A stretch of DNA of 64,000 nt, taken from a virus. The number at the start of each line of letters is the position of its first letter. Within the stretch, counting starts at the first letter, position 1. The notes beneath the pieces are model-generated. The model was not told the origin of the DNA. It saw only the letters and a program-made list of their open reading frames with translations, and made no database searches. Where the stretch lies: positions 4,302 through 68,301 of the IMG/VR virus record IMGVR_UViG_3300043777_000173. One strand, 5' to 3'. Shown here in pieces: positions 1,760-59,333 of this stretch. Position numbers and translations under genes: made by a program.

Positions 1760-1782
1760 CTCCTCGCATAGAACGGGGTTAG
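1760..1782 (-). repeat. dispersed 23-bp motif copy 1
   Basis: CTCCTCGCATAGAACGGGGTTAG, directly after the terL stop. Confidence 0.95.
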
Positions 1783-1797
1783 CAACAGGAGAAAGAT

Positions 1798-1971
1798 ATG
1801 TCAAAATTTGTCCATGGCCTATTGCAGGTGCTAGGCGTGGTGGTTCAGGTGGCAAATGCGGCCTCCGGTGTAGTTCCTGTCAAATATCAGGGACTCGTGG
1901 CTAGTATCGTTGCGGCCATCCAATCCGCCCTAGCGTTGTATAATCATCAAAACCCTCAAGGAGCGAAATGA
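1798..1971 (+). CDS. small membrane protein, holin candidate (57 aa, not in ORF track)
   Basis: MSKFVHGLLQVLGVVVQVANAASGVVPVKYQGLVASIVAAIQSALALYNHQNPQGAK; AGGAG RBS; two hydrophobic segments; ATGA overlap with the next gene. Confidence 0.6.
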   Translation: MSKFVHGLLQVLGVVVQVANAASGVVPVKYQGLVASIVAAIQSALALYNHQNPQGAK

Positions 1972-2540
1972 AGAAACTACTTTCCGGGGCACTAGCCCTA
2001 ATTCTATGTGTCTCGATGGTCGCTTGTACAGTTGATCAAGTCCTAGCAGATATTGAAGTGGTCGTGCAGATTGCGGCCAGCATCGTTCCCGCAGTTGGAG
2101 CGATCTCGCCCGCTGATGCGGCCGTTGTACAAAAGCTTTCTAATGATGCAACCGCTGGCGTCAAGGCCATTCAGGCAGCCTATGATACTTATAAAGCCTC
2201 TGGCGCAGCCACCGACCTCACTAAGTTGCAAGCTGCGATCAATTCCATCCAGACCAATCTTCCCCAGGAATTGGCGGCTGCCCACATCTCCGATCCCAAG
2301 ACCGTCGCAACCGTCACGAATTGGTGCAATTTGATTTACTCCACCATCAATGCAATCGTTGTGGCGATTCCGTCGCTGAATCCAGTTCCCGTGGCGGCGG
2401 TTTCCGCTAAGTCTGCCAAGATTCCCGTTGCTTTCCCAACTGCCAAGGTCATCGCGGCTCGTTGGAATAGCGAAGTCTGCCAGGGCGACGAGGCTTGTGG
2501 CAAGCTCGTGAAGGTCAAGAAACACTTTCTCGGTCTCTAA
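1968..2540 (+). CDS. lipoprotein (spanin or exclusion candidate)
   Basis: signal peptide with lipobox-like MVA-C; helical Ala-rich body. Confidence 0.65.
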   Translation: MKKLLSGALALILCVSMVACTVDQVLADIEVVVQIAASIVPAVGAISPADAAVVQKLSNDATAGVKAIQAAYDTYKASGAATDLTKLQAAINSIQTNLPQELAAAHISDPKTVATVTNWCNLIYSTINAIVVAIPSLNPVPVAAVSAKSAKIPVAFPTAKVIAARWNSEVCQGDEACGKLVKVKKHFLGL

Positions 2541-2720
2541 TTGAACGTCAAGCAAATCCTCGATCGCGGGGTTCAGGAAACTCAATTCAAAGACGAGTCT
2601 TTTTCGTATACCGGGCTCCGCGATTTCAAAGAGGAACGGCCAGAAATTTTAAAACTCGGGCCTAAAACCCAAGTATCTCGACCACGTACGAAGGTCTCCC
2701 AAAACAATTCGTACACATAG
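2541..2720 (+). CDS. hypothetical protein (59 aa)
   Basis: TTG immediately after the upstream TAA; open frame fills the gap. Confidence 0.4.
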   Translation: MNVKQILDRGVQETQFKDESFSYTGLRDFKEERPEILKLGPKTQVSRPRTKVSQNNSYT

Positions 2721-2763
2721 TTGTAGAATCCCTACAATAAAATAAAAATAAAGGACAAACAAC

Positions 2764-3144
2764 ATGGCTATTACTGCGATTAGCACCAACTATACGACCG
2801 CCGGACCTGCATTTACAAACCAGGTTCTAGCCCTTGGAGGCCGTGACGCGACTGAAATCGCGTATCACGGCTATTTTGCGTTTACTGGTGACGGTGCTGC
2901 GACCACGGCGGCCTTTAACTGGATTGATGGCACACAGACTCCGTTCTTCACCCAGGCCAATCCGCCCGTAGCCGTAGCTCCGACGGCGGTTTTTATCGGT
3001 TCCTTGCAAAGTGCAGCGGCTGGTTCCACCGTCAGCATCAACGTAAACTCAGTAACTACGACCGGCGTGACCCTGACATTTAGCGCCGCGCCTTCTGCGG
3101 TTGCCTATAAGCTGCCGTTCATTGTCTTCCCGTACGCTTCTTAA
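2764..3144 (+). CDS. putative virion structural protein
   Basis: AAGGA RBS; Ala/Thr-rich, beta-type composition. Confidence 0.6.
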   Translation: MAITAISTNYTTAGPAFTNQVLALGGRDATEIAYHGYFAFTGDGAATTAAFNWIDGTQTPFFTQANPPVAVAPTAVFIGSLQSAAAGSTVSINVNSVTTTGVTLTFSAAPSAVAYKLPFIVFPYAS

Positions 3145-3389
3145 TGGCGGGAGTGCTTAATCCACGAACTGAGGGGCTTCGGCCCCTCAAGTTCGGTAAT
3201 ATGAGGGGGCTCATGGAACAGCGTTGTTCAGGGCAGCACGACATTTATGTCGCCGAGGTTATGTATGTACCCTCGGAGGGCAAGTTAGTAGTAGTTACAG
3301 TTTGTCGAAATTGTGATACGGTGCACTTTCATGAACGACTGGTCGCTCAACCGCACCGTGAAGCAGAACTCCTAAAAAAGGAAAAATAA
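3144..3389 (+). CDS. hypothetical protein with CxxC
   Basis: coupled to the upstream stop; CRNC. Confidence 0.5.
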   Translation: MAGVLNPRTEGLRPLKFGNMRGLMEQRCSGQHDIYVAEVMYVPSEGKLVVVTVCRNCDTVHFHERLVAQPHREAELLKKEK

Positions 3390-3401
3390 AGGAGATATAC
3401 A

Positions 3402-3923
3402 ATGTCCTATACTATAAGGGATGATAACCCGATTTTTGGCTCCGGAGCCGCAGTTGAACACTCCCAGGGCTATGGAGCTTCGGTAATTGGATGTATTCAG
3501 TCTTATGAACCCACTTCACTAAACGGGGCCACCGCTGCCACCTTCGTCAACGGCTCTTTTAATACAATCTTTATTGCCCCTCCGTCTGCTTCACTAGCCA
3601 ATGGCACCCTGCCTCTTGGTCAGAAGTATCAGGTTGTGGGCGTTACCTATCGTTACGGAACTGCCGGTGGCGCAGGTTCGGTTTTTACAGTTGAAATTGT
3701 TCCTGCGGGAACTGCCGATGGTTCTGGAAACAATGTCCTAAATGCTACGAACGTTTCTTTGGCCACCGCCGCGAGCAACACGCCTACTAACCTGGCACTA
3801 AACACCAACGTTGACAACCTGATCGTTCTTCCGGGCGGAAGAATCAATGTCAATGCTTCTGGTGCCGCGACCACTGGTTTGGCAAACTTCACAGTTATGG
3901 TCTATCTTGCGAGGACCGCGTAA
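3402..3923 (+). CDS. putative capsid decoration/structural protein
   Basis: strong AAGGAG RBS; G/A/T/N-rich jelly-roll-like composition. Confidence 0.6.
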   Translation: MSYTIRDDNPIFGSGAAVEHSQGYGASVIGCIQSYEPTSLNGATAATFVNGSFNTIFIAPPSASLANGTLPLGQKYQVVGVTYRYGTAGGAGSVFTVEIVPAGTADGSGNNVLNATNVSLATAASNTPTNLALNTNVDNLIVLPGGRINVNASGAATTGLANFTVMVYLARTA

Positions 3924-4312
3924 TGGCCAACCGATATCCCCTTCAACCTGGCGATGTGACTCCTGATCTGTCCGACTATAACTTCAGCAATGAAGCTGAT
4001 AGACGGGCGGATCAGACCGTCACTATCGTCCGATCAAATCCGCATAATTACCATGGGGAATATCCAGCATCCGATCAAAGTCACGCCGAAGGCGGACGCC
4101 TCTGGAAGGTTGGCCAGGCCCAACCGAACGAGTTTCTTTCTGCTCCGTTCCCTGTGATTCAGATGGACGGAGATAATAGCGGAACTCCCGCTGAGGTTCA
4201 CGAGATCGACGTGGATTCCTATGGGGATTGCTACGATCCTACGGCCCCAATGCGCGTTCGTACAGTAACGAATTATCACTTGGATAGTGATCACGACGGG
4301 CAGTTAAACTAA
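3923..4312 (+). CDS. hypothetical protein
   Basis: coupled ORF, acidic. Confidence 0.55.
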   Translation: MANRYPLQPGDVTPDLSDYNFSNEADRRADQTVTIVRSNPHNYHGEYPASDQSHAEGGRLWKVGQAQPNEFLSAPFPVIQMDGDNSGTPAEVHEIDVDSYGDCYDPTAPMRVRTVTNYHLDSDHDGQLN

Positions 4313-4313
4313 T

Positions 4314-4556
4314 ATGGCCAACTCAATTAACTTTAGTTTCGACGACAAACTGGCAAAGCCAGTCGATGAACTGCCCACTAGCTATGAACACAAATCTAGT
4401 GACGTAAGTCATCCTCCGCAAACTGCGGATGGCGACGAGTATCTGTGCGGGAACTCTGGCCCCGAACATTCCTATGCGAATGCCGGGCGCGATCAAGATC
4501 GCTCGCGCGCGGATGAACGAATCGCAGCCCAAGGCTGTGCGAGGTATGTAAGTTGA
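4314..4556 (+). CDS. hypothetical protein
   Basis: tightly packed ORF in operon. Confidence 0.5.
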   Translation: MANSINFSFDDKLAKPVDELPTSYEHKSSDVSHPPQTADGDEYLCGNSGPEHSYANAGRDQDRSRADERIAAQGCARYVS

Positions 4557-4801
4557 ACTTCTCCGGCTTGGTAACCCCCAACTATGGCCAGATGGGCACG
4601 GAGAATCTACCCGCTGGCAACGGTCCTGCCATTCCTTACGGAGCTGGTAACCCTGCTGCTTCAGGGCCAGTGCTTTCAACCGGCACCATGCAGGGACCTT
4701 CCAGCCCCGCGACCTCAAACATCGGCTACCGACCAACCTCTGGTCGGGCGGATCGACTCTCAGCTAATATTGTAGGTGGTAATGGGATTGGAAAGTTTTA
4801 G
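4553..4801 (+). CDS. hypothetical protein
   Basis: TTGA overlap; G/P/N-rich. Confidence 0.5.
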   Translation: MNFSGLVTPNYGQMGTENLPAGNGPAIPYGAGNPAASGPVLSTGTMQGPSSPATSNIGYRPTSGRADRLSANIVGGNGIGKF

Positions 4802-5066
4802 TTTATGTGCTGCCCTGTTAGTGTTGATTGGTCTCGACTTGAAGATCAGTTCAATGAGATGGAAACAAGGCGCGACGGACCTCAATCCTATAGTCCAACA
4901 CTTTGCCAGCAAGAGTACAACCCTTGGCCTCTTGAGTCTAAGCGCGATAAATCTTTTAGTAATGGCGGCAGCTTTCCAATACCTGCCCCTCGTTTGGATG
5001 CTTCTAGGCGGTAAGTTAGCTTTAGCATCAATTCAACTACGGAGCCTAATAGAAAATGGCAAATGA
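4776..5066 (+). CDS. small membrane protein
   Basis: three hydrophobic segments with a GATDLNP motif. Confidence 0.55.
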   Translation: MVMGLESFSLCAALLVLIGLDLKISSMRWKQGATDLNPIVQHFASKSTTLGLLSLSAINLLVMAAAFQYLPLVWMLLGGKLALASIQLRSLIENGK

Positions 5067-5307
5067 ACCAGCAAATCCGAATCTTGTAAACAGCGTAGCT
5101 ACAACCACTGACACTAGTGTGGTTAACAGCCTAACGGCCTCGGGAGCGCAATACTTTGTGCCAACTGAAGCGCCGATTGTGCTTAGCAACAGTCATCCGG
5201 TGGTCACTCGCGCGGATGGGGCCCTTTGGGATGTAACCGCCGGTGCTTATGTGGCAATTCAATTAACTAATTTCGGCACCACCAGCGTGCCTAAAATGGG
5301 ACAATAA
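5056..5307 (+). CDS. DG-x-x-WD family small protein, paralog 1
   Basis: SHPVVTRADGALWDVTAG, near-identical to a segment of 15181..15471. Confidence 0.7.
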   Translation: MANEPANPNLVNSVATTTDTSVVNSLTASGAQYFVPTEAPIVLSNSHPVVTRADGALWDVTAGAYVAIQLTNFGTTSVPKMGQ

Positions 5308-5309
5308 TC

Positions 5310-5564
5310 ATGGCTATCAGAGTTCTAAATGGCAATATCGCAATGTCTAGCTTCGGTCAATCGCAGACCTCAACTACGCAGGTCCCGGTGATGATGGTTG
5401 GTGAGAAGAACAAAACTGTCACTGATCAGGGTCCTTATTCAGCTAACCAGAGTTCCGCCGCAACCACCGACGTGGTTAGCATTGGTGCAGACTATGGAGT
5501 CTGGGACGTTACCGCCAACCAGGCCCTCGATTCCAATTCCACCAATCTGGTCTACCCAGTCTAA
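5310..5564 (+). CDS. DG-x-x-WD family small protein, paralog 2
   Basis: GADYGVWDVTAN. Confidence 0.65.
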   Translation: MAIRVLNGNIAMSSFGQSQTSTTQVPVMMVGEKNKTVTDQGPYSANQSSAATTDVVSIGADYGVWDVTANQALDSNSTNLVYPV

Positions 5565-5842
5565 TGAGCAACCGAGCCAATTCGACTGACACCCTCGGGA
5601 CGACCCAGACGCAAGCCGGGAACGTCGTGCCCATCAATACCTGGGTCACGACCTTTCCTCGACCGAGCGGCCTAACCATCACGGTCACTCGCCTCAATGG
5701 TGAGATGTCCGCCGCTGGCGCTGCCGTAGGCGATCTCGTCGAGCGAGACTCCGACGGCGGCTTCTGGGATACAACCGTAGGCGTTCGCGTGCCTCCGGAC
5801 TTTACGAGTTACCAACTCGGGAATGATATGGTCTCCAACTAA
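5564..5842 (+). CDS. DG-x-x-WD family small protein, paralog 3
   Basis: RDSDGGFWDTTVG. Confidence 0.65.
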   Translation: MSNRANSTDTLGTTQTQAGNVVPINTWVTTFPRPSGLTITVTRLNGEMSAAGAAVGDLVERDSDGGFWDTTVGVRVPPDFTSYQLGNDMVSN

Positions 5843-6102
5843 TGTCACAGCGATACAACGAAACAAACAACGGCGGCATCACAACGATCGCGGGTGGCAA
5901 TATGCCCGCCTCGACCTATGCCAATCAATACCAGCCAACGAGTCGAACGGTTGGCCAAGGTGGCGCGGGCGGCAAAGCCTCGATCGTGGTTATCGCCAAT
6001 AGTCATCCAGTTGAAGTTGACGGTGATGGCGGCCTTTGGGATACCACGACCGGCGTAGCCGTCCAGGATTTCCAAACTAATATCTTGTGCATCGGCACCT
6101 AA
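5842..6102 (+). CDS. DG-x-x-WD family small protein, paralog 4
   Basis: NSHPVEVDGDGGLWDTTTG. Confidence 0.7.
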   Translation: MSQRYNETNNGGITTIAGGNMPASTYANQYQPTSRTVGQGGAGGKASIVVIANSHPVEVDGDGGLWDTTTGVAVQDFQTNILCIGT

Positions 6103-6108
6103 CGAGTT

Positions 6109-6200
6109 AGCCCGTGTAGGACGGTGCGTTCCTTCCCCTCTTTCGCACCCAGATTCGCCGCCCTCCTCCTGCCTCGCGCGCGGATACTAACACACGGGCT
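6109..6200 (+). ncRNA. candidate structured RNA (three-way junction with pyrimidine loops)
   Basis: closing stem AGCCCGTGT/ACACGGGCT, inner stem GGTGCG/CGCACC, second GC stem with a CCTCCTCC loop. Confidence 0.45.
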
Positions 6201-6207
6201 TCACTTT

Positions 6208-6230
6208 CTAACCCCGTTTTAAGCGAGGAG
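6208..6230 (+). repeat. dispersed 23-bp motif copy 2
   Basis: CTAACCCCGTTTTAAGCGAGGAG; its GAGGAG is the RBS of the gene at 6236. Confidence 0.9.
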
Positions 6231-6235
6231 TAAGT

Positions 6236-6523
6236 TTGGAAATCGTTGGAGTTACAAGACTAAGAGATGGACAGGAAGTCGATGAATTTGTGGTCGGCTG
6301 TCCTGAGCATAATTATTGGTTTAAAGGCGCGCCTCCATTAACTCACGGTTGCCGTGAATGCTGGCACGCCTATTTTTATGCCCAGTGGGCGATGGCCGGG
6401 GCCAAGCCTGAGCAGGTCGATCAACTTGAAGAGGCGATCCATCATGCAGCGGAGCTGGAAGACCGGGGCGAGTTTGACTTCAAACCCAAGCTCGAAGATT
6501 TCAAAATTGAGAGAGAAAACTAA
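6236..6523 (+). CDS. hypothetical protein, possible Zn-binding
   Basis: CPEH...CREC; RBS supplied by motif copy 2. Confidence 0.6.
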   Translation: MEIVGVTRLRDGQEVDEFVVGCPEHNYWFKGAPPLTHGCRECWHAYFYAQWAMAGAKPEQVDQLEEAIHHAAELEDRGEFDFKPKLEDFKIEREN

Positions 6524-6840
6524 TGGCAACCTTTACAGCAATCCTGGTTCCGAGTAGCCCAACCGCATCCTCGTTGTTCAATGGCACGGCCGGAGCCTCC
6601 GCTACAGTAACACCTGGCTTCAAGACAATCATTGGAATCGCTTGCATATCGGCGACCGCCGGAGATGCCTTGAATGTGCGTTTCGGAAGTGCCCTAAAGG
6701 CCCCCACGGCCACGGTAGCCGATTGGCCCGTGGCTGCCGGGACAGTTCAGTATTTCGATCTGGGGTCTGAGTTTGATCGAGTGGCGATCTTTAGCGCGAC
6801 TACCCCTAAGTATTATGTTTATGTGTTTTCTAAGTGCTAA
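6523..6840 (+). CDS. putative structural protein
   Basis: coupled ORF; Ala/Thr-rich beta-sandwich-like. Confidence 0.6.
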   Translation: MATFTAILVPSSPTASSLFNGTAGASATVTPGFKTIIGIACISATAGDALNVRFGSALKAPTATVADWPVAAGTVQYFDLGSEFDRVAIFSATTPKYYVYVFSKC

Positions 6841-6841
6841 C

Positions 6842-6864
6842 CTCCTCGCATAGAACGGGGTTAG
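6842..6864 (-). repeat. dispersed 23-bp motif copy 3
   Basis: CTCCTCGCATAGAACGGGGTTAG; identical to copy 1 including flanks (CTAAC...C). Confidence 0.95.
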
Positions 6865-6880
6865 CTTTCAAGTTCTTAAT

Positions 6881-10726: not shown

Positions 10727-13700
10727 GAAAAGTTGCCTTGCTTGTCGGTGTTGCGCTCTTGGGTCTGCCTACTTTCGCCGCAACCTACTATGTGGCTGCC
10801 ACTGGCGCGGATACGAATAACGGCACCAGCAAGGCGACTCCCTGGCTGCACGCTCCCGGCATGAGCACCTGTACGAGCCTTTGCAGTTCCACGACGATCA
10901 ACGCAGGCGACTCTATCATCTTCCGGGGCGGAGACACATGGCACTTTGGTGACAACACGCAAGTGCCATTCGCGGGATTCCAGAGCAACGCCTGGGCGTT
11001 CTCGCGCTCGGGAAGTTCCACTAGTTGCCAACTGAATGCTGCTGCGGGCGCAATTGTCACCACGACTTGCATTTATATCGGAGTCGATCAGACTTGGTTT
11101 GCAGGCGGATCGTGGACCAGACCTGTCTTTAACTTCGACAATCCCGTTACCACTACGAGCCCAGCTTCATGCACGTTCGACGACACGACGCTCAATCCTA
11201 TCCATTTCAATGCCAGTTACGTGATCGTGGATAATCTTGAAATCTTCGGCTTCTGCTCCAACTCAACGACCACGTTCAGCAATCTGATTGCGTTCTCCAA
11301 CGGAAATCTGCAATGGGAGTGGAAGAACTCCTACGTCCATGGGTACATGCTGGGGCAAACCTGCACCAGCAGCGGCGGAGCCGACTGCGACGAATACTGG
11401 GTGTTCGGCGGATTCACTTCGATCAGCAGTTACTACCGCATCGATCACAACGTCTTCGACAACTCGGACGGGACGTATGGTGGATCGGGGAACAAAGCAT
11501 CGCTCGGAGTGTGGAATATTGGCGGGATGCAATTTGACCACAACGTCTTGAACTACGTTTCCAACGGCCTTAAATTCCGCGCGATGTTGATGGTAGATGA
11601 TAACCTTTTCAACAACATCTTTGAACCGGTGGTCGGTGGCACTCACGGCAACATCATTGAATATGCCGGAACCGGGCAGGTTTATCCGCTCTCGACTTAC
11701 TACTTTAACAACCTCACGCTCTGTTCGTCCGGGCCTTCGAATATTGGAGAGTCGCTGGACATGTATCCAGGTTCCTCTGGGTCGGGGAAAGTCGGCTACA
11801 TCTTCAACAATATCTCTAACTGTAACTACGGTGGTGGCACCGGCACCAATTGCTACATGATCGAGGGCGATGGTGGAAATGGCGGTCCAGGCAATACGCA
11901 ATTTTTCAACAATACGCAGGACTTCCAATGTATGATGCGGAGTCTGCGCGGCAGCTCCACGGGCATCTATCAGAACAACCACTTTGTCGGGTACTCGCCG
12001 TCTGGAGCGATTGGAAACTTCTCCTCGATGACGGTGGCCACAGACAACGGCAACGAAATATGGCAGACCACCGGAGCGGCCTGTGGATCGGTAGCGACGA
12101 ACTACGCTCCAACCTCTAACTCATGTGCTACGGTCGGCGCTGGAGCCAATCTGACTTCAACCCTCTGCGCCGGAATGGACAATGCGACGGCGAGTGCGGC
12201 CTGCAAGAATAGCTATGGCGGGGTGACCTACAACACTAGTAACCACACGGCGGTGGACAACTCCATAGTGGCCCGACCCACATCCGGTTCGTGGGACTCC
12301 GGTGCCTATGAGTTTCTCCCGCCTTGTAGCGGTGCGAATGGCCCTTGCCCTGGCTACACCGCTTATCAAGGAACGATCATCGTGCAACCCCCCACGACTC
12401 CTAATATGGGGGCTGTTTTAAATAGTGGCCTAGTTTATCGCGATTCTTCCTACCCCAGCGGGATAGCCCCTGCGGTTGTTCGTTGCACAGATCAGTCGAT
12501 CGATCCCCAAACTCCCTTCAGTAATCAGAACAAACACGCAGGGTTAGGAGGATCGGGAGATGCAGCCCAAATGTTTGCGGCTGACGATCATTTAATGGGA
12601 TTTGGGGCCAGTGGGGGGAAATATTATCTTATTCATTTCAATACTTACACCTTAATATGCGGTGATCCTACCACAGGATTCGCGATCACAGCCAACAAGA
12701 ACCTCACTAATCCAGGTTCGTCCGGAGTGGCGTACAACTTTGGCAACGGTAGTTTTGACTGGACCAACCCCCTTGTATATTACGCGATGGGGGCAGGTTC
12801 GGACACGACCAATGCACAGATCACGAAATACACCTTTAATTCCAGTGATCAGTTTACAGTTACCTCGCCATATATAGACTTTTCTTTTGGTATCCCGTTA
12901 GGAGCGCAGGCTCCAGCATGGCAGGCAACCCACGCCTACTCTGCTGGCGACTATATTTCATTTACCTTCGCAGAGCCAGACTGGGTAGCATCAAATGCGT
13001 ACTCGACGTTAGGGACGTTAATTGTACCGCTGCTTAACAACTTCTACAACTGTGCCTTCAAGTTAACCACTACCGGCACTTCCTCCATTTCAGCTTCCGA
13101 GCCTATCTGGAGTACATCAGGACAAGGTGGGTGCGTGTCAGCCTCACAGAATGTCATCAATGATAATACAGCCAAATGGCGGAATATCGGGGCTGGACCC
13201 ATCTTCACGTATCAAAACATCGGATCGAGCGGCAACTCAGGAGGCAGTACTCCTGCCTTCAGTCCTAATATGTTTTCCGCCGCCGCCGATGCTAACGGGG
13301 TGAACTGGGAGAATACGGGGGTCACGACCAGTCCCGCATGGAGTAATCCCTCGGGTGTGTCAGCGGACTCAACGCGCTTTGCCTTCGGCTTCTCCACGAA
13401 CGAGTACGGGACCACAGGGAGTTACACTTCTTACAATGGTGATCAGGGCACTGGAGTCTATGCCGTCGCCTACAGTACCACCCTTAACCAATTTTTCTTG
13501 CTTAATACCGCTACTGGGTGGGTGAGTTCCACCACCTGCACAGGGGGATCAGGTTACAACTGCGCAGGTGGCACGCTCAGCAAGCTTACTGGGCAGGGGA
13601 CGGTTACAGCCATCACCTCCGGTCCTTGCGGATACTTCCTCCATAACGTCAAGGGAAGTTCGCATCTCGACTATGTGACGGCTGCGCAGAATGGATTGAT

Positions 13701-38473: not shown

Positions 38474-38785
38474 ATGATCGAGATACCAAAAGACCCCTCA
38501 TTCAAAGACCTGCAAGTCCTCTGGGAATCGCAGTTCTGGTACAAAGCTCCCGCGACCTGGCGATTCTATGCTCAATCCTATGAACGCTGGATCAAACGGT
38601 TCGGAGCAGACCGGAAGCCCCGCGATGTCTTTCGCTCAGATGTTCTAGAATACAAAGCCTGGCTTCGCTCTCTGGGCAAGAGCGAGCAATATATAGAGAA
38701 CGAGATGGAGCGAGGCAGACGGTTTTATCGTTACCTTGACTCGCGGGAGCTGGTCGAGAAGGATTGGAATCCGTTTAAGTTCTAG
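38474..38785 (+). CDS. stand-alone integrase core-binding (SAM-like) domain protein
   Basis: TWRFYAQSYERWIKRFG...DVLEYKAWLRSLGKSEQYI...RRFYRYL pattern; no catalytic domain; start ATG 38474 or TTG 38456. Confidence 0.65.
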   Translation: MIEIPKDPSFKDLQVLWESQFWYKAPATWRFYAQSYERWIKRFGADRKPRDVFRSDVLEYKAWLRSLGKSEQYIENEMERGRRFYRYLDSRELVEKDWNPFKF

Positions 38786-50903: not shown

Positions 50904-51118
50904 GTCCCCGCATCCCTCTTGTGTCCAATATGCAGGTACTGGCAATTCATGCACAGGTAAAGCTCCAAGTTCTCCGGGTCATGGTAACGAGTCGTGTCCT
51001 TCTGGGCAGCCAGGAGGTAGGCCGGGGCCTCCTCAAGGCTGAGTCGTAACTTCCGGTGGCAGTTCTTCCGGTGGGAGCGGAGGCGGGTTTTGATGCTCAT
51101 AACCCCAACTGCTCCCAT
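50900..51118 (-). CDS. small Zn-finger protein
   Basis: CHRK...YLCMNCQYLHIGH. Confidence 0.6.
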   Translation of the reverse strand: MGAVGVMSIKTRLRSHRKNCHRKLRLSLEEAPAYLLAAQKDTTRYHDPENLELYLCMNCQYLHIGHKRDAGT

Positions 51119-52582: not shown

Positions 52583-52596
52583 AACTTGGGTCCAGT

Positions 52597-53085: not shown

Positions 53086-53279
53086 CCGGGACCTCCTCTC
53101 CGACGATTAGATCAGTCTTGAAGACCGGCAGGTCATCATGGAAACACTCTCGACAAGCGGGAAATACAGTCTTGCCTTCTCGAATCCAGATCGGCCTTAT
53201 GAAAGCCGCACACGCATCGCAGTACCAACCTGTTCCTCGGTTCTGGACACACTTGACTGTGCTTGCGCCCGGCGGGCGA

Positions 53280-53768
53280 TTACCATTCGTTGTCAACTCT
53301 TGGTGCTCGTTCTCTGAGTTCATTCTCCCTCGCTCTGATGCGCTCTGCAAGTCCGGCGACGCCCTCTGCAATTGGATTTTCAGGGGCAAATCGTACTTGT
53401 TGATTTCCTCGACCATAAATTGCTCCAGGTGGGGCGGGCTCCGGTGCAGCGTGCGGAATAGCCCACTCTCCTTGAAATGCTTGCAAGGGGGCCTCTCGTG
53501 GAACCGCCCTGTACCCAACAACCTGCTTCTTGACCTTCTTGCCAAGACCTAACGCCTGACAAATCTTCTTGTATCGGCTCCTCGACACTTTGATCCGCCT
53601 CGGCTCCCTCAAAATCCACAGCGGCGTGTGTAAAATCTGGGCGGCCTCGATTACTTCCTTGCGGGTTTTAACCGGAAGGCCTCGATAACTCGCCAGGACA
53701 TTGAATACATCCTTCCCGCCATACCACCCGCCGCCACATTTTACCACATATCGAATGTGCGAAGCCAT
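53280..53768 (-). CDS. hypothetical protein
   Basis: ATG right after the ATP-grasp stop with GGAG RBS. Confidence 0.5.
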   Translation of the reverse strand: MASHIRYVVKCGGGWYGGKDVFNVLASYRGLPVKTRKEVIEAAQILHTPLWILREPRRIKVSRSRYKKICQALGLGKKVKKQVVGYRAVPREAPLQAFQGEWAIPHAAPEPAPPGAIYGRGNQQVRFAPENPIAEGVAGLAERIRARENELRERAPRVDNEW

Positions 53769-53769
53769 G

Positions 53770-54504
53770 CTATCTCCGTGCTTGAAAGCCGTTCCGTGTC
53801 CATCGTTCAATACAGTTGACCAACGAGGTCATCCCCTGTCGAGGTTCCCCTTGGGTTCCCGGCGCTGTATTAACTTCAAGGACGTAGTATCGTCGATCAG
53901 CGCCCAAAATAACATCCACACCGCCGAAATCAAGATCAAGGGCAGCCACCGCGTTGATGGCCAAGCTCTTGAGCGCGGGAGCGAGGCCCTCGGGATCGAC
54001 AAATTGATATGCGAATCCATTCGCCCAATTCCAGACTTCCTTGTTCCGGCCTCGCCGTCCATATTTATTTGGGTATTCGAGTTTCTTTTCATAAGTCGCG
54101 AGATGCTTCTGGCGGAATACCCACACCCGAAATTCATTCTGCTTCGAAACGACCATCGTATAGTAGTCGCTCAGATGATCACCTCGGAGGAGCGGTCGAA
54201 CCCCATACGCGAAGATATCATTTCCCCTCGTGTGATGGAACTTCCTGCCAAATATCGGTGGCACCAGGTCCGCTGCACTGTGCGAGAACGGGACGGTCCG
54301 AACTCCAGCTTCGTCGAGTTTGACCAGCTCCTGATACTTGTCTTGCCGCCCGGCATTGGCATTCAAGGTGGGCAGCCCTCGCCCATCTCCTGCATACCCA
54401 TAATTCACAATGCCTTGAATTGGTCTCCCGAGGAGGCCTTTCTCACTAAGCATCTCTCTCAACAGTCGCCCCGTGGGGCCTGCAATCGCTCGAAGCTCCA
54501 ACAT
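53770..54504 (-). CDS. ATP-grasp ligase (RimK-like, phiEco32-type)
   Basis: EFRVWV, LDLDFGGVDVI, VLEVNTAPG. Confidence 0.88.
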   Translation of the reverse strand: MLELRAIAGPTGRLLREMLSEKGLLGRPIQGIVNYGYAGDGRGLPTLNANAGRQDKYQELVKLDEAGVRTVPFSHSAADLVPPIFGRKFHHTRGNDIFAYGVRPLLRGDHLSDYYTMVVSKQNEFRVWVFRQKHLATYEKKLEYPNKYGRRGRNKEVWNWANGFAYQFVDPEGLAPALKSLAINAVAALDLDFGGVDVILGADRRYYVLEVNTAPGTQGEPRQGMTSLVNCIERWTRNGFQARR

Positions 54505-54513
54505 CTTGCCTCC

Positions 54514-55491
54514 TTAACCCAACTTTGTCTTGCAAGTCGCGCATTTGTAGCGCGGCAAATCCTTTAACATCGCGGCGTTCACGCTGATGTACAGCCCGCA
54601 CGCCGGGTTCGGACATTTAACCACATCCACCGGACGATCATCATAGAACTTCACCCGGTTGCCATGATATTGCTGATGACACAGATAGGTTGCGGGCGTC
54701 CAATTAACGGCAATCCGCATCTCTTGGGTCCATTCAACGCGGCTTCCTGTCCAATCCACATTGTCATCGTGTTGTGGTTCTCCGAACAACCACGCAGAGT
54801 TGTCTGTCATCCCGATCATGTAATAGTCAATTGGGGACATTTCCCGCATGGTTATCCCCCATACTTGTCGCATTGGCCGGAGGGCCTTGTACAAAGGCCC
54901 CCTCTCACTGGAGAACATCAACCAGTCCGCAGTTGCGGCCAACTCGATTGGGTTGCCACTCCTTCCAAGGAGCAGCTTGCCCGGATACTTAGGACTCACG
55001 GCGGCAAACGCCGCATTCCCCGACAGGCGGCTCATCTTATTGATGGCCCCCCGACTGAACCCCTCTTTGTCCAGTATAGCTCTGAGAATATCGCTATCGG
55101 TCTCGGCCTTACGAGGCAGCTTCCACTCTGTAAAACCCCATTCATGATTTGAAATATGTCCATTGTGGACAAGCGCGGTCTCCCCCGCGAACATCGGATG
55201 GTTATTGGCAATAATCTTAGGGCTTCCAACTGTCGCCTTTCGGGTGTGACCCAAGACGGTCACCGAGTCTGGGCGGAGATACTCTTCCATGAACCTCTGA
55301 TATTCCCGACTCGCGAGGAATTGATAGGCCGTTACATCCTGTTTCAGGATGGCCACACTCCCGTCGGCTTGTTGAATGGCAATCCCGGCGGCCTCCAGGC
55401 CCCGGTTCTGATTGTTCAGGATCAACAAGTCAATCATGTCTCGTTCGATTGGCTTGGCCCCGAATCGGTGCACACCAGTGATTCCACACAT
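54514..55491 (-). CDS. class II glutamine amidotransferase
   Basis: N-terminal MCGI, RG..AAG, GHTRKAT.G, NNHP, HNGHI, ETDSD. Confidence 0.92.
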   Translation of the reverse strand: MCGITGVHRFGAKPIERDMIDLLILNNQNRGLEAAGIAIQQADGSVAILKQDVTAYQFLASREYQRFMEEYLRPDSVTVLGHTRKATVGSPKIIANNHPMFAGETALVHNGHISNHEWGFTEWKLPRKAETDSDILRAILDKEGFSRGAINKMSRLSGNAAFAAVSPKYPGKLLLGRSGNPIELAATADWLMFSSERGPLYKALRPMRQVWGITMREMSPIDYYMIGMTDNSAWLFGEPQHDDNVDWTGSRVEWTQEMRIAVNWTPATYLCHQQYHGNRVKFYDDRPVDVVKCPNPACGLYISVNAAMLKDLPRYKCATCKTKLG

Positions 55492-55492
55492 G

Positions 55493-57010
55493 TTATTCCC
55501 TCATTCCCTGCACTGGCATCGCCAGTATATCTCCGTACAAAATCTGTCCTTGAAACTTCGTCTTGGGTGATCGCTTCGCAAGCCCGGCTTTCCATTGGTC
55601 GTAGGAATCCGGCTTTACCTTCCCGACTTGCCAGAACGGAAACACAGTTTCCAACAACAATCTCCGGCATTCATGAAATGTAGCGGCCTCACGAGTCTTC
55701 TCTGAGGAGTAGATGATCCCCCCGTCTCCTCCCACAGTAACCTTGCCCCCACAAAACTTCTGCCATCCAACTGGCAGGGTCTTGGCCAAGTTACGCGGGA
55801 TCACGAAGTACAACCCTCGCGCCAAATCCCGATTGTTCCCCAACACATAATCAAAACTCTCGTGCCGGCAAACGTCCCATACCAACTCCCCAAGGCCCTT
55901 CGCTCCATGTGTATTCACATCATGGATGGCCATCACATAGCCATTCGGGGGATTGAGGGGATTCCAAGTCGGCTTAGGAACCCGGCTCCATAATATACTG
56001 TTCCCCGCCAAATACTCGAACATCTCCTCAATGTCTTCGCGATCCGGCTTGACGCTCTGTGGGATGCAGGTGATCTTCGTGGTGAAGGCCATCCCATCCC
56101 CGATTCCCCATCGCTTCTTGAAATCCCCGCCAGCATGAATCGGGAACTTCTTGGTGATCATCTTCAGCGCCAGTCGCGCGTCATCATCCACATCTTTGTA
56201 ATAAGCCAGAAGATTCTTGATCCTCTGGAAATGCCGGTCCACACTCGGCAATACCACATAGCCTTGTGTCAAGGCCGGATTCTGCACTACGAGCTTTGCA
56301 AGTGTAATGGTGAGGAAAGCCAACTCCGGGCTGTCGAGCCAACTGGGAAATGTCCGATATTCATAGCCATGCAACTGGAGTCGAATATCACCAGGCAATC
56401 CATAAGGATGATTGCGACCGTCGCCTTGTCTCCTCCGCATAACTTCTTTACAAGGATAGGCATTGACTGCCAACAGTTCATCTTCAAGGACATCAAGAGC
56501 TTTCACCTCCACGTCTCGCCCCGGTCGCTTCCTCCCAAAATGCACATGCCCGCCCACTCCATCCCCACAAATCCACGCCCCGGCACACCAGTCATACGCC
56601 AAGGTCTTGGGATATAGGATGGCCATCCATCGCAGGGCCGCTAGGATGCTCGCTGTGACGTTGAGGGCGCTCCGACTCGGATACGGGCGTATCTCGGTCA
56701 ACCGCCCGTTGTTGTCCATCCCGAAGGCCAAGCCCTGCTGCAACTGTAACAGACGGGCGTCCGTCCTCTCCCCACCATGACTGAAGACAAACTCCGGGTC
56801 GGCCCCCAGCTTGAACCTGTTCACATATCTCCGCTGCCCGCAAAACTCGGTCGGCAGTTCCAGCAGCCTGTTCAGCCACTTGTCAATCTTCGGGGCCGGG
56901 ACCGAGCACCCAAACGGCAGAGCCTGATTGAGTTGCTCCAACCTATAAATCCCCTGCTGGATCATCAGCCTCTTGAAAGCCTCGTGTTGTTCTTGATATT
57001 TCATGGACAA
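55493..57010 (-). CDS. phiEco32-like COOH-NH2 ligase type 2, paralog A
   Basis: LGADPEF, EIRP, GGHVHFG, YGLPGDIR, GYEYRTFPSWL. Confidence 0.88.
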   Translation of the reverse strand: MSMKYQEQHEAFKRLMIQQGIYRLEQLNQALPFGCSVPAPKIDKWLNRLLELPTEFCGQRRYVNRFKLGADPEFVFSHGGERTDARLLQLQQGLAFGMDNNGRLTEIRPYPSRSALNVTASILAALRWMAILYPKTLAYDWCAGAWICGDGVGGHVHFGRKRPGRDVEVKALDVLEDELLAVNAYPCKEVMRRRQGDGRNHPYGLPGDIRLQLHGYEYRTFPSWLDSPELAFLTITLAKLVVQNPALTQGYVVLPSVDRHFQRIKNLLAYYKDVDDDARLALKMITKKFPIHAGGDFKKRWGIGDGMAFTTKITCIPQSVKPDREDIEEMFEYLAGNSILWSRVPKPTWNPLNPPNGYVMAIHDVNTHGAKGLGELVWDVCRHESFDYVLGNNRDLARGLYFVIPRNLAKTLPVGWQKFCGGKVTVGGDGGIIYSSEKTREAATFHECRRLLLETVFPFWQVGKVKPDSYDQWKAGLAKRSPKTKFQGQILYGDILAMPVQGMRE

Positions 57011-57140
57011 ACCACGCCGTAGTCACATGACAGACAGCCAACTATACCGCCCTTTAAACTGGCCTTCTTAGTATACTTCCGACCGCAATTCGGGCACATG
57101 ATTGACACCATCTCCGGCACCACCCGCCTCGGAAGATGAT

Positions 57141-57689
57141 TCAAATCAATTGCTTCCACGGGTTTTCTTTTCTTAGCCACGCTCGATAGCTCCTCAAGTT
57201 CTCAATACCCGCCGCATCATCCATCTTCTCCCACGGGGAGTGGATGAAAAACCGATGGTTCTCATGCTCGATCAGCTTGTCAAACAGCGGCGTTCGCCAC
57301 GGATCAAAGAAGTCCTCGACCAGCTTCGACCACGGCGCATAGAAATATGACGGGCCGGGACTGTAATATTGGATCATCAACGCGCTTCGCGGCGTTGCGT
57401 GATGTGCAAACCTAAACACCCCAAGCTGGTCATACTCGCTAACCTTCACGCTCCCCTGCAACCCACAAAACCGCTTGATCTTTGGAATCAACAAGGGGTT
57501 TGGCTTACCATCATAAGCCCAAACCGTCATATAGTCCGCGAATAGCTGCCCGTCCTTCTTCGGGAGTCGTATTTGGACTTCGATCCTCCACCTCGTAGGC
57601 TCCCGCCCCGGAAATGGCTTGACCCGCTTCCTGTTGGCATTCACGGTCCAGAATGCCGGGTCTTTCGAGATTTGATTCAAGGACTTCAA
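57141..57689 (-). CDS. hypothetical protein
   Basis: fills the operon; starts right after motif copy 13. Confidence 0.5.
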   Translation of the reverse strand: MKSLNQISKDPAFWTVNANRKRVKPFPGREPTRWRIEVQIRLPKKDGQLFADYMTVWAYDGKPNPLLIPKIKRFCGLQGSVKVSEYDQLGVFRFAHHATPRSALMIQYYSPGPSYFYAPWSKLVEDFFDPWRTPLFDKLIEHENHRFFIHSPWEKMDDAAGIENLRSYRAWLRKENPWKQLI

Positions 57690-57692
57690 GGT

Positions 57693-57715
57693 CTAACCCC
57701 GTTCTTTGCGAGGAG
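57693..57715 (+). repeat. dispersed 23-bp motif copy 13
   Basis: CTAACCCCGTTCTTTGCGAGGAG. Confidence 0.95.
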
Positions 57716-57716
57716 A

Positions 57717-58193
57717 TTAAAACGAAATTCGCATCCACAAGTACACCATTTTGCCTTCCTTGTAATACCAGGACGCTTTTACAAATCCGTTATTTTCAAG
57801 CAGCTTAATCTCGCGCGCATTCGTTGAAAGCGTTGTAGCCAAGACGATGTTATAGCCAATCTCATTCGCCGCCTTTAGTCGAATTTGCAATAGCTCTTTT
57901 CCTAGTCCTATACCGCGAAATTCCGGTTCCACTACAGCATGATGAAAGACACAGATCGCTTTACAACCCGGAAGAGGCAATATCCCGAATTTAGCCACCT
58001 GTTCATAGCCACTGGTAGTATCCCACTTCCAGAGGGTATAGTCGCCTGTGTACGGAGTGCGTCGAAGGAATATCCGCCCGAGTTGCCGCCATACAAGCAG
58101 AGTCGGGTGTATACTTCCGAGCAGATGTTTTTCAAGGGCGACCCGACTCGCGCGGACTCGTTCTTCCGGTACATTGATTCCAAGTATTGGCAT
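57717..58193 (-). CDS. GNAT family acetyltransferase
   Basis: VVEPEFRGIGLGKELL motif A; N...IKLLENNGF motif B. Confidence 0.85.
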   Translation of the reverse strand: MPILGINVPEERVRASRVALEKHLLGSIHPTLLVWRQLGRIFLRRTPYTGDYTLWKWDTTSGYEQVAKFGILPLPGCKAICVFHHAVVEPEFRGIGLGKELLQIRLKAANEIGYNIVLATTLSTNAREIKLLENNGFVKASWYYKEGKMVYLWMRISF

Positions 58194-58976
58194 TTAACAG
58201 TCTCCGCAATAAGCCTGACTCTCTGCTCTCCTGTTATGTATATCCTCGTGGCCCTTCTGGTCCACGAACATCGAACACATCATGCACCAGGCCCTCTCGG
58301 TCATCTTCTCCCCGAGGGTCACAATGGCCTTCTCATTGCTCTTGACCCTCGCGAGGAACTCCGCTTTTTTCTTCTGGAGCATCAGCTCGGTTTCGAGGGC
58401 CACCCACCGGGTTCCCACATCAAATTTCCATGCTCGCTCGCAAGCGGGCAGCTCGCAAATTGGCACGCCCCACTTATCATGATTGAATCTGTTCTTCTTA
58501 CAAATGATGCACTCCCGGCAATTCAGGAGCATCTGCTTGTAGGCATTGGTCAGCCGCACGGAGCATTGATTCCCGTCCAGCACATACCTCGAATCCGCGA
58601 AATGCAATGTCCGGTCTCTTGTGTTCCCATAAACACTCTGCCTACAGCACCGGCACATGGCAAACGCCATGCTCTGCTCCTCGACGCCAATCCAATACCG
58701 ATATTCCTCCTGGCCTAGATTCCCCTTGGGGATCGAAAACTTGGCCTCTACATGCCACCCGCCCGGCGAATACCCATAACGCGGAACACACTGGTAGTGA
58801 TAAAAATCCCCTCTCGTATATTGGCCCTTGACTTGCTTACATCCAAGGAGGACCTCTCTAATCACGGCCTTCGAGCAAGTCGGACAGATTCCGGCCACGT
58901 CTTGAGGCTCCTCCCTCTTGGGAAGGCGGATGCCTCCGGGCATTGCCAATCGGCGGAGCATGTAGGGCGGTATCAT
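58194..58976 (-). CDS. Cys-rich multi-Zn-finger protein
   Basis: CPTC, CRCC, CIIC, CELPAC, CMMC. Confidence 0.6.
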   Translation of the reverse strand: MIPPYMLRRLAMPGGIRLPKREEPQDVAGICPTCSKAVIREVLLGCKQVKGQYTRGDFYHYQCVPRYGYSPGGWHVEAKFSIPKGNLGQEEYRYWIGVEEQSMAFAMCRCCRQSVYGNTRDRTLHFADSRYVLDGNQCSVRLTNAYKQMLLNCRECIICKKNRFNHDKWGVPICELPACERAWKFDVGTRWVALETELMLQKKKAEFLARVKSNEKAIVTLGEKMTERAWCMMCSMFVDQKGHEDIHNRRAESQAYCGDC

Positions 58977-59305
58977 CGAGGCCTCTTAAACTCTTTGCTT
59001 CCATACAAATAGAGCGTGTTACCTTCTTTGTTACCCCAATCTGCCATATCTAGGTGCCCCTTGAAGGTTGCCAGCAGCTTGTATCCCTTGCTCAACAACG
59101 CCTTCTTTTGTTTCTCAAATCCCTCTTCAGACTCGCCAATCACTGTCATCGTGACGGTGTTGTATCGCCCTCTGCACCCATTCCGGGGTTTCATCGTGTC
59201 GAACTTCGAGGCATCGCGTCGAGAAAACGCATCATCAAAACCCAGACAGTCGATCTCTCCGATCAATCGCACCGCGCAACATCCCGGCATTTCTAGTACA
59301 CGCAC
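58973..59305 (-). CDS. degenerate GNAT-like protein
   Basis: MPGCC...LLSKGYKLLA...LYLYG; RBS from motif copy 14. Confidence 0.55.
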   Translation of the reverse strand: MRVLEMPGCCAVRLIGEIDCLGFDDAFSRRDASKFDTMKPRNGCRGRYNTVTMTVIGESEEGFEKQKKALLSKGYKLLATFKGHLDMADWGNKEGNTLYLYGSKEFKRPR

Positions 59306-59310
59306 AAACC

Positions 59311-59333
59311 CTCCCCGCCTAAAACGGGGTTAG
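59311..59333 (-). repeat. dispersed 23-bp motif copy 14
   Basis: CTCCCCGCCTAAAACGGGGTTAG. Confidence 0.85.

Follow-up and report, generated by a model that had tools for sequence, protein, structure and literature searches.

The stretch of DNA analysed here, called the window below, comprises bases 4302–68301 (64,000 nucleotides) of the single 68,301-bp contig IMGVR_UViG_3300043777_000173, which we refer to as G0; positions prefixed with "w" are counted from the start of the window, and genome coordinates are those of G0. The contig is a phage genome, and dispersed along it, within genes and at gene borders and in both orientations, is a 23-bp motif that forms the subject of this study. Encoded on the plus-strand arm (w1–38785) are the terminase, the portal and the major capsid protein, together with an SU10-type adaptor and a number of giant proteins. 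The minus-strand arm, which converges with it and extends through the first 3.6 kb of the genome, encodes a primase/helicase, a family-A DNA polymerase, a Sak4-like annealing protein, an exonuclease and a small sigma-like protein, and also, accompanied by a glutamine amidotransferase and an ATP-grasp enzyme, three phiEco32-type COOH-NH2 ligases. The motif proved to be a two-part element under strong selection, and the interpretation best supported by the sequence comparisons is that it serves as a recognition site, read sequence-specifically by a lineage-specific factor.

A search of the window with the pattern CKAACCCCGTTYTNNGCGAGGAG at three or fewer mismatches returned 14 matches, ten without a mismatch and four with one, divided evenly between the strands (seven on plus, seven on minus). 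All 14 copies listed in the original prediction were thereby recovered, each at exactly its position, and a fifteenth copy lies outside the window at genome 1146–1168 on the plus strand. Chance occurrence of the pattern was nil (mean 0, maximum 0 in 100 dinucleotide-preserving shuffles). The whole genome held no copies with 2–5 mismatches, the next matches being unrelated sequences with six, and so the family is discrete and without decayed members. Comparison of 63 copies from five genomes (G0, G001, G002, G010 and G012) resolved an asymmetric element of two nearly invariant blocks, ACCCCGTT and GCGAGG, separated by 3–5 nt of variable sequence; this spacer is 4 nt long in 50 copies, 5 nt in 9 and 3 nt in 4. 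The flanks, CTAAC or CTGAC on one side and A(G/A) on the other, are looser and differ by genome, with CTAAC typical of G0, CTGAC of G001, and a GAT spacer of G010. The imperfect palindrome previously described at the core, CCCCG-N7-CGAGG, is real: CCCCG and CGAGG are 5-bp arms lying 6–8 nt apart, a spacing that varies by ±1 in relatives, and they include one conserved C.A mismatch.

The clade that bears the motif consists of uncultured soil phages with several protein families in common with phiEco32 and SU10, and the public runs that contain G0 sequence are soil metagenomes. No close cultured relative of G0 was found by megablast, or by tblastn with its 1051-aa protein, and the portal matched cyanophage and other records only at 21–27% identity. 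Among the relatives, G001 (65.9 kb) and G002 (66.0 kb) are near-complete, and the records G010 and G012 are 62% and 57% complete. G001 is collinear with G0, with 64–74% nucleotide identity over 17.5 kb of conserved genes and a G+C content of 44%, compared with 52% in G0. The occurrence of the motif in related phages, which the original prediction had proposed to look for, was borne out by a scan of viral contigs for the core, which found 19 stretches; the core is present in G001, G002, G009, G010, G012 and several fragments, and because these genomes were assembled independently the motif is not an assembly artefact. At three or fewer mismatches, G001 has 8 + 8 copies and G002 has 4 + 5, while a control pattern read backward gave 0; when a variable spacer was allowed, the copies numbered 15 in G0, 17 in G001, 14 in G002, 9 in G010 and 8 in G012. 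Motif copies are the only long identical words common to these diverged relatives.

Candidate host genomes were searched as well. A scan of 185,579 species genomes, one per species, returned at least 120 stretches, where our own estimate of the chance expectation is about 140, and each of the 80 stretches listed had a single match, in unrelated taxa. These single matches among those listed, together with the lack of target-site duplications, none of which were seen at five of six pairs of copies when the flanks were read by eye, led us to reject a host repeat of the repetitive extragenic palindrome (REP/REPIN), miniature inverted-repeat transposable element (MITE) or CRISPR-like kind. No Rfam family or tRNA was found for the motif. 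A role as an intrinsic terminator, for which a G+C-rich stem with a T run behind it would be expected, was rejected also; reading the flanks, without a terminator scan of the copies, revealed no such run after either strand. The ends of the G0 contig (w63884–63997 and genome 1–120) overlap in an imperfect GACCCC/GACCAC hexamer array, from which it follows that the assembly is closed or terminally redundant. This array may encode a stretch rich in Pro/Asp or in Gly/Val.

The constraint on the motif acts on nucleic acid and not on protein, as the original prediction had argued, since at two orthologous places it is kept in different reading frames and one orthologue lacks it. The copy in the 3′ end of the histidine-phosphatase gene is translated in the same frame in G0 (LLAKNGVS) and G010 (FLATNGVS). 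In G001 the motif is kept but its reading is shifted by one base (KLSSFKTGSGD), along with an insertion of three residues, and G002 has an unrelated peptide and no motif. In the giant tail gene, G0 and G001 read EPRS(L/V)RG at the same place and in the same frame, and G002 reads NPVLSED at the homologous place in another frame; intragenic copies in the EPRS(L/V)RG frame have CGAAC for CTAAC, and therefore no stop codon.

Placement of the copies is far from random. A rough gene call placed 29 of 41 copies (~70%) in intergenic DNA, where chance would put a share of 0.19 or less. Intergenic copies are wedged between co-directional genes. Most sites are found at module junctions, with a gene start no more than ~20 nt downstream, and where the gap is long the copy stays close to the downstream gene. 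When the sequence is read along the motif, the TAA within CTAAC is often the stop codon of the upstream gene and GAGGAG or GAGGAA lies 1–11 nt ahead of the next start; when it is read in reverse, the motif begins 1–3 nt after a stop and the next start follows 3 to ~20 nt further on. The doubling of copies as stop codon, ribosome-binding site or start, which had been noticed earlier, is thus a real feature of these junctions, and so is the lack of polarity with transcription: in G0, G001 and G002 together, the CTCCTCGC..GGGGTTAG strand is transcribed in 28 of 46 copies and the other strand in 18. Adjacent copies alternate in orientation; the fraction of neighbouring pairs that do so is 11/14 for G0, 13/16 for G001 and 12/13 for G002. 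Close pairs, defined as copies no more than 2.5 kb apart, are inverted in 30 of 31 cases from six genomes, a count in which orthologous pairs are not independent. The segments bracketed in this way carry small genes or no convincing gene.

In the plus-strand arm, the first copy (w1760–1782, minus strand) lies 1 nt past the terminase stop and 15 nt ahead of the next start, with its CTCCTCGC..GGGGTTAG strand transcribed, and orthologous copies follow the terminase in G001, G002, G010, L004, L014, L016 and L020. A cassette of two genes, X (w6236–6523) and Y (w6523–6840), is bracketed on the left by w6208–6230 (plus), whose GAGGAG is the ribosome-binding site 5 nt before the TTG start of X, and on the right by w6842–6864 (minus), located 1 nt past the stop of Y and 16 nt ahead of a 1281-aa gene. 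The copy at w19364–19386 (plus) is the left bracket of a 387-bp segment without a convincing gene. It is followed by w19751–19773 (minus, one mismatch), 12 nt ahead of the start of the gene at w19786–20175, at the head of the scaffold and capsid block; orthologues of this copy are found in G001 (19133), G010 (21322) and G002 (20906, with a 5-nt spacer), and the more distant genome G007 has its own motif, described below, at the same junction. At w23977–23999 (plus), TAA is the stop of the gene at w23612–23980 and GAGGAA is the likely ribosome-binding site of the histidine-phosphatase gene (w23990–24574), with orthologues in G002 (17474) and G010 (24765). The next copy, w24518–24540 (minus), lies within the 3′ end of that gene and is read LLAKNGVS. 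Two copies are inside the 1524-aa tail gene, w34485–34507 (minus; aa 228–236, SSPRTGL) and w35208–35230 (plus; aa 469–477, EPRSLRG, with CGAAC instead of CTAAC).

The remaining copies belong to the minus-strand cluster. The copy at w41592–41614 (plus) is 8 nt upstream, in the sense of transcription, of a promoter-like repeat and the primase operon, and has orthologues in G001 (40264), G002 (1629) and L281; with w34485, which is 7 kb away, it forms a 31-nt perfect inverted repeat, and the source run's Logan contigs are broken at this repeat. The copy at w49957–49979 (plus) is one bracket of a cassette of 924 bp that lies upstream of the exonuclease gene, and the orthologous pair in G001 is 46847/47929. 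The copy at w50881–50903 (minus, one mismatch) provides with its TAA the stop of the gene at w50900–51118, and an ATG lies 2 nt after its GAGGGG. Between the stop of an acetyltransferase gene (w57717–58193) and the TTG start of the gene at w57141–57689, 3 nt away, is w57693–57715 (plus), with orthologues in G001 (54886) and L242. The last copy, w59311–59333 (minus; one mismatch, GCGGGG), places GGGGAG 5 nt before the GTG start of the gene at w58973–59305, and the orthologous pair is present in L242. Of five peptides that had been taken to mark intragenic copies, LLAKNGV, SSPRTGLD and EPRSLRG lie in well-supported genes, but PNPVLCEE (w19364) and SPRKERGSK (w49957) fall in open reading frames that score low for coding and are without a homologue, so these two copies are probably intergenic.

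Several other features of these regions were recorded. A conserved, structured element of ~100 nt with a three-way junction occupies w6103–6207 (genome 10404–10508), between gene W and the copy at w6208, and is found beside W also in L014, L020, G001 (10880–10977) and G002 (about 38510–38557, there upstream of W). Compensatory changes were seen in 12 of its 29 predicted pairs over four sequences, the loops are pyrimidine-rich (UUCCCCUCUUU and CGCCCUCCUCCUGCCUCGCG), and a search of Rfam gave no match; we consider the element a candidate new phage non-coding RNA. The 122-aa product of the gene at w23612–23980, in the structural arm, has a domain resembling Tlde1 / L,D-transpeptidases (Pfam E 5.9e-14); the gene directly precedes the motif-bracketed histidine-phosphatase cassette and is present in G010 and L015 and absent from G001 and G002. 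The major capsid gene (w21201–23010) is split by a 793-bp insertion (w22125–22917) that carries an HNH endonuclease gene (w22220–22903), with the final 31–37 codons at w22897–23010. The gene is uninterrupted in relatives from run X2 (DNA) and run X4 (an RNA library), at loci L015 and L201, and in G001 and G002, and the insertion may be an intron or a mobile element. Contig coverage in the RNA library is not readable as expression, and such contigs cannot show transcript ends. The DNA polymerase (w42894–45755) is encoded in two parts, w42894–44858 and w45285–45755, with an HNH endonuclease gene between them (w44855–45322), and the G001 polymerase is a single 755-aa gene. Free-standing endonuclease VII-like genes at w26824–27177 and w46916–47374 are without a counterpart in G001 or G002.

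The content and order of cassettes differ at the sites. With the motif written as s, the arrangement is W-s-X-Y-s in G0, W-s-Y-s-X in G001, and W-s-X in G002 and L020. The motif at the W/X junction (w6208) has one orientation in G0, L014 and G001 and is flipped in place in L020 and G002, with both flanks conserved. Gene H1 adjoins a motif copy in both G0 and G001, at different loci. Similarity between sequences may also begin or end at a copy: that between the giant tail proteins of G0 and G001 starts at w35208, a contig from run X3 matches the 387-bp segment from exactly w19364 with an unrelated left flank, and at w19362 a loose contig end from the source run X1 is identical to the left flank of the copy at genome 1146. 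The public runs were represented by assembled contigs, which drop rare forms.

At two or fewer mismatches the motif is absent from ten loci, nine with a terminase 55–61% identical and one, L301, at 72%, and the complete records G006 and G007 have 0 copies. G007, which represents a sister lineage, has a different two-part word, CATCAGAC-N4-6-AGCCCCCTTAG, with 17 copies that run in either direction and close pairs that are inverted in six of seven cases. This word occupies the same kinds of position as the motif: one copy comes 1 nt past the portal gene and ahead of the w19786 homologue, and others precede the w30999 homologue, a place at which G001 and L271 carry a motif copy, and the primase operon. 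It also forms an inverted pair inside a 2571-aa giant gene, and two copies point outward in a divergent control region. In the transcribed sense the two words have a common build, CTCCTCGC-N3-5-AACGGGGTTAG for the motif and CATCAGAC-N4-6-AGCCCCCTTAG for G007. The presence of a different word at the same places argues for a trans-acting reader that co-evolves with its sites. Self-complementary arms are missing from the G007 word; what the lineages have in common is therefore a word in two parts, not a stem, and the palindrome is probably not the essential feature of the motif. No convincing dispersed motif was found in G006, G011, G008 or G013. From tblastn matches, the exonuclease and the sigma-like protein had seemed to track presence of the motif; a Pfam model then found the sigma-like gene in five of five genomes, and the apparent co-distribution with sigma was therefore an effect of sequence divergence.

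A candidate for a protein that might read these sites is encoded at w38456–38785 on the plus strand, just downstream of the giant tail gene. The original prediction, which had put this gene (as w38474–38785) first among possible binders, was apt in that the product has a DNA-binding fold: profile comparison, AlphaFold2 and Foldseek identify the 109-aa protein as a stand-alone core-binding (SAM-like) domain of a tyrosine recombinase. Pfam alone gave Phage_int_SAM_4 at E 0.068, which is not significant, and a profile built from six orthologues matched the XerA recombinase N-domain at E 0.005. The AlphaFold2 model had a mean pLDDT of 90.7, and its Foldseek matches were nearly all tyrosine-recombinase core-binding domains (Tn1549 Int, lambda Int, XerA, Cre and IntI); the best had E 5.9e-3 and TM 0.72, so that the E-values are weak and the list is consistent. 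At the same place G007 encodes a full-length recombinase (Phage_integrase E 3.8e-29, with catalytic residues visible), and G011 encodes a 237-aa form with a SAM-like domain and a decayed, truncated catalytic part. G006 has neither a homologue of the 109-aa protein nor a dispersed motif. A viral-contig scan for more lineages with the homologue yielded only four known records, and no catalytic recombinase is encoded in the G0 genome. The association between motif and recombinase remnant, which spans three or four lineages only, is suggestive; the remnant is our leading candidate for the binder, although we consider this role doubtful. In G011, the arms of an 18-nt inverted repeat (L345 12344–12361 and 13347–13364), 89% complementary and each a palindrome in its own right, lie on either side of the decayed recombinase-like gene.

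Taken together, these observations are most consistent with a motif that docks a co-evolving phage protein on double-stranded DNA in a stoperator-like role, insulating or timing the expression of modules, with the sites serving also as points of module exchange; we put the probability of this interpretation at roughly 0.45. A lineage-specific DNA-binding protein, perhaps the 109-aa recombinase remnant, would dock at 14–17 sites per genome, and, parked at module edges, might insulate modules or time their expression in the way that operator and stoperator sites do in mycobacteriophages. The copies would double as places of module exchange because they are the only long identical words in otherwise diverged relatives. 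Alternating orientation would leave inserted cassettes bracketed by inverted copies, and the alternation itself may reflect deletion between direct repeats by the phage's own annealing protein and exonuclease system.

A number of points weigh against docking of this kind. Stoperators are polar with transcription, and these sites are not. A lone core-binding domain usually spans ~10 bp, which is short for a two-part site of 19–23 bp, and no motif copy adjoins the candidate's own gene. The link between the motif and the core-binding-domain protein covers just the three or four lineages mentioned, and in one that has a decayed homologue, G011, no dispersed motif was found. No repressor and no helix-turn-helix protein other than the sigma-like one was recognised at Pfam E ≤ 1e-3. 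A spacer of 3–5 nt is reconciled more easily with a loop than with a rigid protein, and where the CTCCTCGC..GGGGTTAG strand is the transcribed one, folding of the copies is somewhat stronger than that of shuffled sequences (mean z −1.41, n=28), the corresponding value for the other copies being −0.27 (n=18).

Two further sets of signals in G0 are relevant to transcription. A second repeat, GTAATATC-N14-GGTATCTAAAC, occurs at w38368–38408 (plus) and at w41546–41591, w46755–46797, w48369–48402 and w50431–50471 (minus), with weaker copies at w22205 (plus) and w60901 (minus). It is always co-directional with the following gene, including the core-binding-domain gene and the HNH gene within the capsid gene. 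Published sigma promoter elements are AATGTA or TAATGTATA for phiEco32 and TGATGT(TATA) for phage 7-11 (PMC4281155, PMC12276001, PMC4331800). As the second repeat resembles these promoters, its copies are likely to be the real phage-sigma promoters, and the dispersed motif is probably not one. Outside the window, at genome 3617–3761 (locus L001), two strong sigma-70-like promoters, GTGACA-17/18-TATAAT with 11/12 matches, lead into the minus arm; they fit early transcription by the host polymerase, as in phiEco32, and this divergent control region of G0 contains no motif copy.

One alternative is that a cassette-mobility system tied to the tyrosine recombinase uses the copies, or used them until recently, as its crossover or end sequences. 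Inverted copies would then enclose mobile cassettes in the manner of shufflon-type sites or terminal inverted repeats, and the system would still be active in G007, with its intact recombinase, and frozen in G0, which retains the core-binding domain alone. Inversion of 30 of the 31 close pairs in six genomes would be expected, as would the varied content and order of cassettes in G0, G001, G002 and L020, the placement of gene H1 by a copy at different loci in G0 and G001, similarity that ends exactly at motif edges in the X3 and X1 contigs and in the giant protein, the joining of two copies 7 kb apart in a 31-nt perfect inverted repeat, and the series of recombinases from intact (G007) through decayed (G011) to a core-binding domain only (G0). 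The partial dyad CCCCG-N7-CGAGG has a spacing like that of integrase-family core sites such as lox, dif, the attP core and sfx, in which a crossover region of 6–8 bp separates two inverted binding arms, and the sites of the R64 shufflon are likewise asymmetric, recombining only if inverted. Nevertheless, G0 encodes no catalytic domain, the G007 motif is not a dyad, five of six pairs have no target-site duplications, and an active recombinase with 17 sites would scramble the genome. In-silico inversion between the intragenic copies of the giant gene breaks its reading frame, introducing 5 stops in G0, 19 in G002 and 1 in G007, on which ground an invertible tail-gene segment was rejected; moreover, among 12 listed joints in the public contigs of four runs, not one (0/12) was a change of strand. 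The original prediction of a genome-wide binding-site system holds insofar as the motif is genome-wide, selectively maintained and conserved in relatives; its suggestion of recombination at the sites drew no support from these comparisons, and nothing was found that spoke for or against nicking or ejection pausing. Conservation of position despite different motifs between lineages suits a cis-regulatory site better than a mobile end, and we regard cassette mobility as unlikely. About as unlikely, in our view, is a broader proposal that would make the sites a heritable "punctuation" system, in which a lineage-specific word and a protein derived from a tyrosine recombinase co-evolve to give programmed module exchange or insulated genome loops. 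Inverted copies would then stand around cassettes and at fixed junctions, one of them within the giant tail gene, so that modules could pass between co-infecting relatives by a genome-wide device like a shufflon or an integron in a virulent phage, and the recombinase would be under domestication to a pure DNA-binding protein, intact in G007, decayed in G011 and reduced to the core-binding domain in G0.

It is also conceivable that the motif acts in mRNA, as a hairpin that masks the ribosome-binding site until it is opened by a ribosome completing the upstream gene (translational coupling), or as a processing or stability signal; either orientation would be transcribed as a C-rich arm, a loop, and a G-rich Shine-Dalgarno-like arm before a start codon. 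The along-motif intergenic copies do place GAGGAG or GAGGAA 1–11 nt before a start, in the reverse orientation GGGG may lie 7 nt before one (genome 1149 and 61997), upstream stops lie 1–3 nt before the motif or within it, the spacer length is natural for a loop, and copies transcribed as CCUCG..CGGGG have a mean folding energy of −7.7 kcal/mol. The better folding of these transcribed-sense copies and the suitability of the spacer are the reasons for retaining an RNA function as a rival. The stem, however, has only five pairs, of which one is the C.A mismatch in nearly all copies, a position at which G would pair better in either strand. There is no covariation, the TT and G of the loop do not vary, along-motif copies fold no better than shuffles, conserved copies lie deep within genes, the positionally equivalent G007 motif has no self-complementary arms, and a reverse complement rarely retains an RNA function. 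Three related structures were tried and rejected: a plain hairpin, on account of the conserved stem mismatch and the stemless sister motif; an extended hairpin through the flanks, for which a permutation test was not significant (in the best class, on the non-transcribed strand, 1 of 30 permutations reached the real value); and a long-range RNase III stem between bracket copies, whose variable bases do not co-vary within pairs. The identity of the word across genomes argues for a common reader and not for pairing of bracket copies. An RNA function is thus, to us, quite improbable, and a role as transcription signals for an RNA polymerase bearing the phage sigma factor or a phage activator, with promoters pointing from CTCCTCGC to GGGGTTAG and back-to-back pairs acting as divergent promoters, is more improbable again. 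Such promoters would account for the 28 of 46 copies that point with the genes, from a few to ~20 nt upstream of the first genes of blocks (scaffold and capsid, tail, primase), for the proximity of copies to the downstream gene in long gaps, for the two outward-pointing copies in the divergent control region of G007, and for conserved position amid sequence turnover, as in the promoter sets of T7, T3 and SP6; a sigma-like gene is also present in every relative tested. But the other 18 copies point against the genes and must be transcribed through, because they carry the ribosome-binding site of the next gene, and some starts come just 3 nt after the motif. Its G+C-rich blocks, ~13 bp apart from centre to centre, are unlike −35/−10 geometry, and it does not resemble the AATGTA or TGATGT elements of phiEco32 and 7-11, while a separate, strictly co-directional promoter-like repeat exists and the divergent region is occupied by sigma-70-like promoters. 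Lastly, a selfish or hitch-hiking short repeat, homogenised by gene conversion and without a function of its own, would be in keeping with the near identity of copies within one genome, with the flank or spacer variant peculiar to each genome (CTAAC in G0, CTGAC in G001, GAT in G010), and with the 31-nt perfect repeat that joins two copies. We consider this very hard to credit, given a core that is invariant at 64–74% gene identity and in a genome of 44% G+C, retention of orthologous positions, maintenance within genes despite a change of frame, and the occupation of those junctions in G007 by a motif that is different but equivalent.

Networks of dispersed sites in phages, such as stoperators, start-associated sequences and promoter sets, are few, and each has been informative about control of the whole genome. 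The present one has strictly alternating orientation with inverted copies around cassettes and a neighbouring tyrosine recombinase at three stages of decay. A full-text literature search, which was not exhaustive, did not find the combination of alternation, retention through frame changes, replacement of the word and decay of the recombinase. If the sites are bound by protein, the clade would be a natural experiment in which DNA-binding specificity and its 15 targets change together, and it would offer a concrete mechanism for the location of mosaic joints in phage genomes.

Among known systems, the Cluster A stoperators, which are sites for repressors of the L5 gp71 type, offer a close parallel to docking of a protein at module edges, being short asymmetric sites present in many copies genome-wide, mostly in short intergenic gaps. 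They number some tens of copies in both genome arms, are 13–14 bp long and are polar with transcription; the phage immunity repressor binds them, and one copy overlaps the early lytic promoter. The motif shares several of these features, with 15 copies in 68.3 kb (14–17 in relatives), an asymmetric form and an intergenic position in 29 of 41 cases. The L5 genome has a structural arm, an integrase at mid-genome and a replication arm in the opposite sense, a layout resembled by the structural arm, central integrase remnant and reversed replication arm of G0. Unlike stoperators, the motif runs with transcription in 28 cases and against it in 18, is built of two blocks with a 3–5-nt spacer, and forms close inverted pairs around cassettes; and unlike stoperator phages, G0 has no recognised repressor and no intact integrase. 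That a monomeric two-domain repressor is able to read an asymmetric site is described in one study (PMC9283540).

The promoter sets of T7, T3 and SP6, which are 23 bp long and point with the genes, invite comparison in another respect. Together with the phiEco32 gp36 elements and the HF2 repeats, these sets are similar to the motif in having ~15 copies of a word of ~23 bp whose positions are kept as its sequence changes. They differ in that all of them point with the genes, where 39% of motif copies run against the genes and overlap translation signals, and the motif sequence is unlike gp36-type elements; the GGTATCTAAAC repeat is closer than the motif to the AATGTA and TGATGT sigma elements and is co-directional. 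Intergenic repeats of the halovirus HF2 carry promoters, according to one report (PMC8707807). A further likeness is to the start-associated sequences of Cluster K mycobacteriophages, in which a conserved word that includes the ribosome-binding site stands just upstream of the starts of some genes (PMC3203893). Only the along-motif copies supply a ribosome-binding site here, in contrast to those sequences. Start-associated sequences, moreover, have a single orientation, a length of 13 bp and no intragenic copies.

Recombination systems provide the other comparisons. The R64 shufflon (sfx sites and Rci) and the invertible tail-fibre segments of Mu and P1 have asymmetric inverted repeats and a recombinase gene beside a tail or adhesin gene that bears the repeats, and in G0 a tyrosine-recombinase relative adjoins the giant tail gene. 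The motif differs from shufflons in that it is spread genome-wide, inversion destroys the frame, and only the core-binding domain is encoded in G0. Integron attC sites are 57–141 bp long, all in one orientation and one per cassette, and they require IntI; an attI site is also part of such arrays. Small cassettes bounded by imperfectly palindromic sites, in a genome encoding a tyrosine-recombinase relative, are reminiscent of them, and CTAAC/GTTAG resemble the RYYYAAC/GTTRRRY boxes of attC, although a GTTAG flank occurs in only 2 of 15 copies; attC sites and gene cassettes have been reported in phages too (PMC9892861). The motif differs in being a 23-bp site present at both ends of a cassette in inverted orientation, and G0 has no integrase. 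It lacks a defining feature of each known system. Stoperators, start-associated sequences and promoters are all polar, shufflons have a catalytic recombinase and an inversion that keeps the reading frame, and attC sites are set apart by their size, orientation and need for IntI; the motif is for this reason placed by itself within the dispersed site networks of phages.

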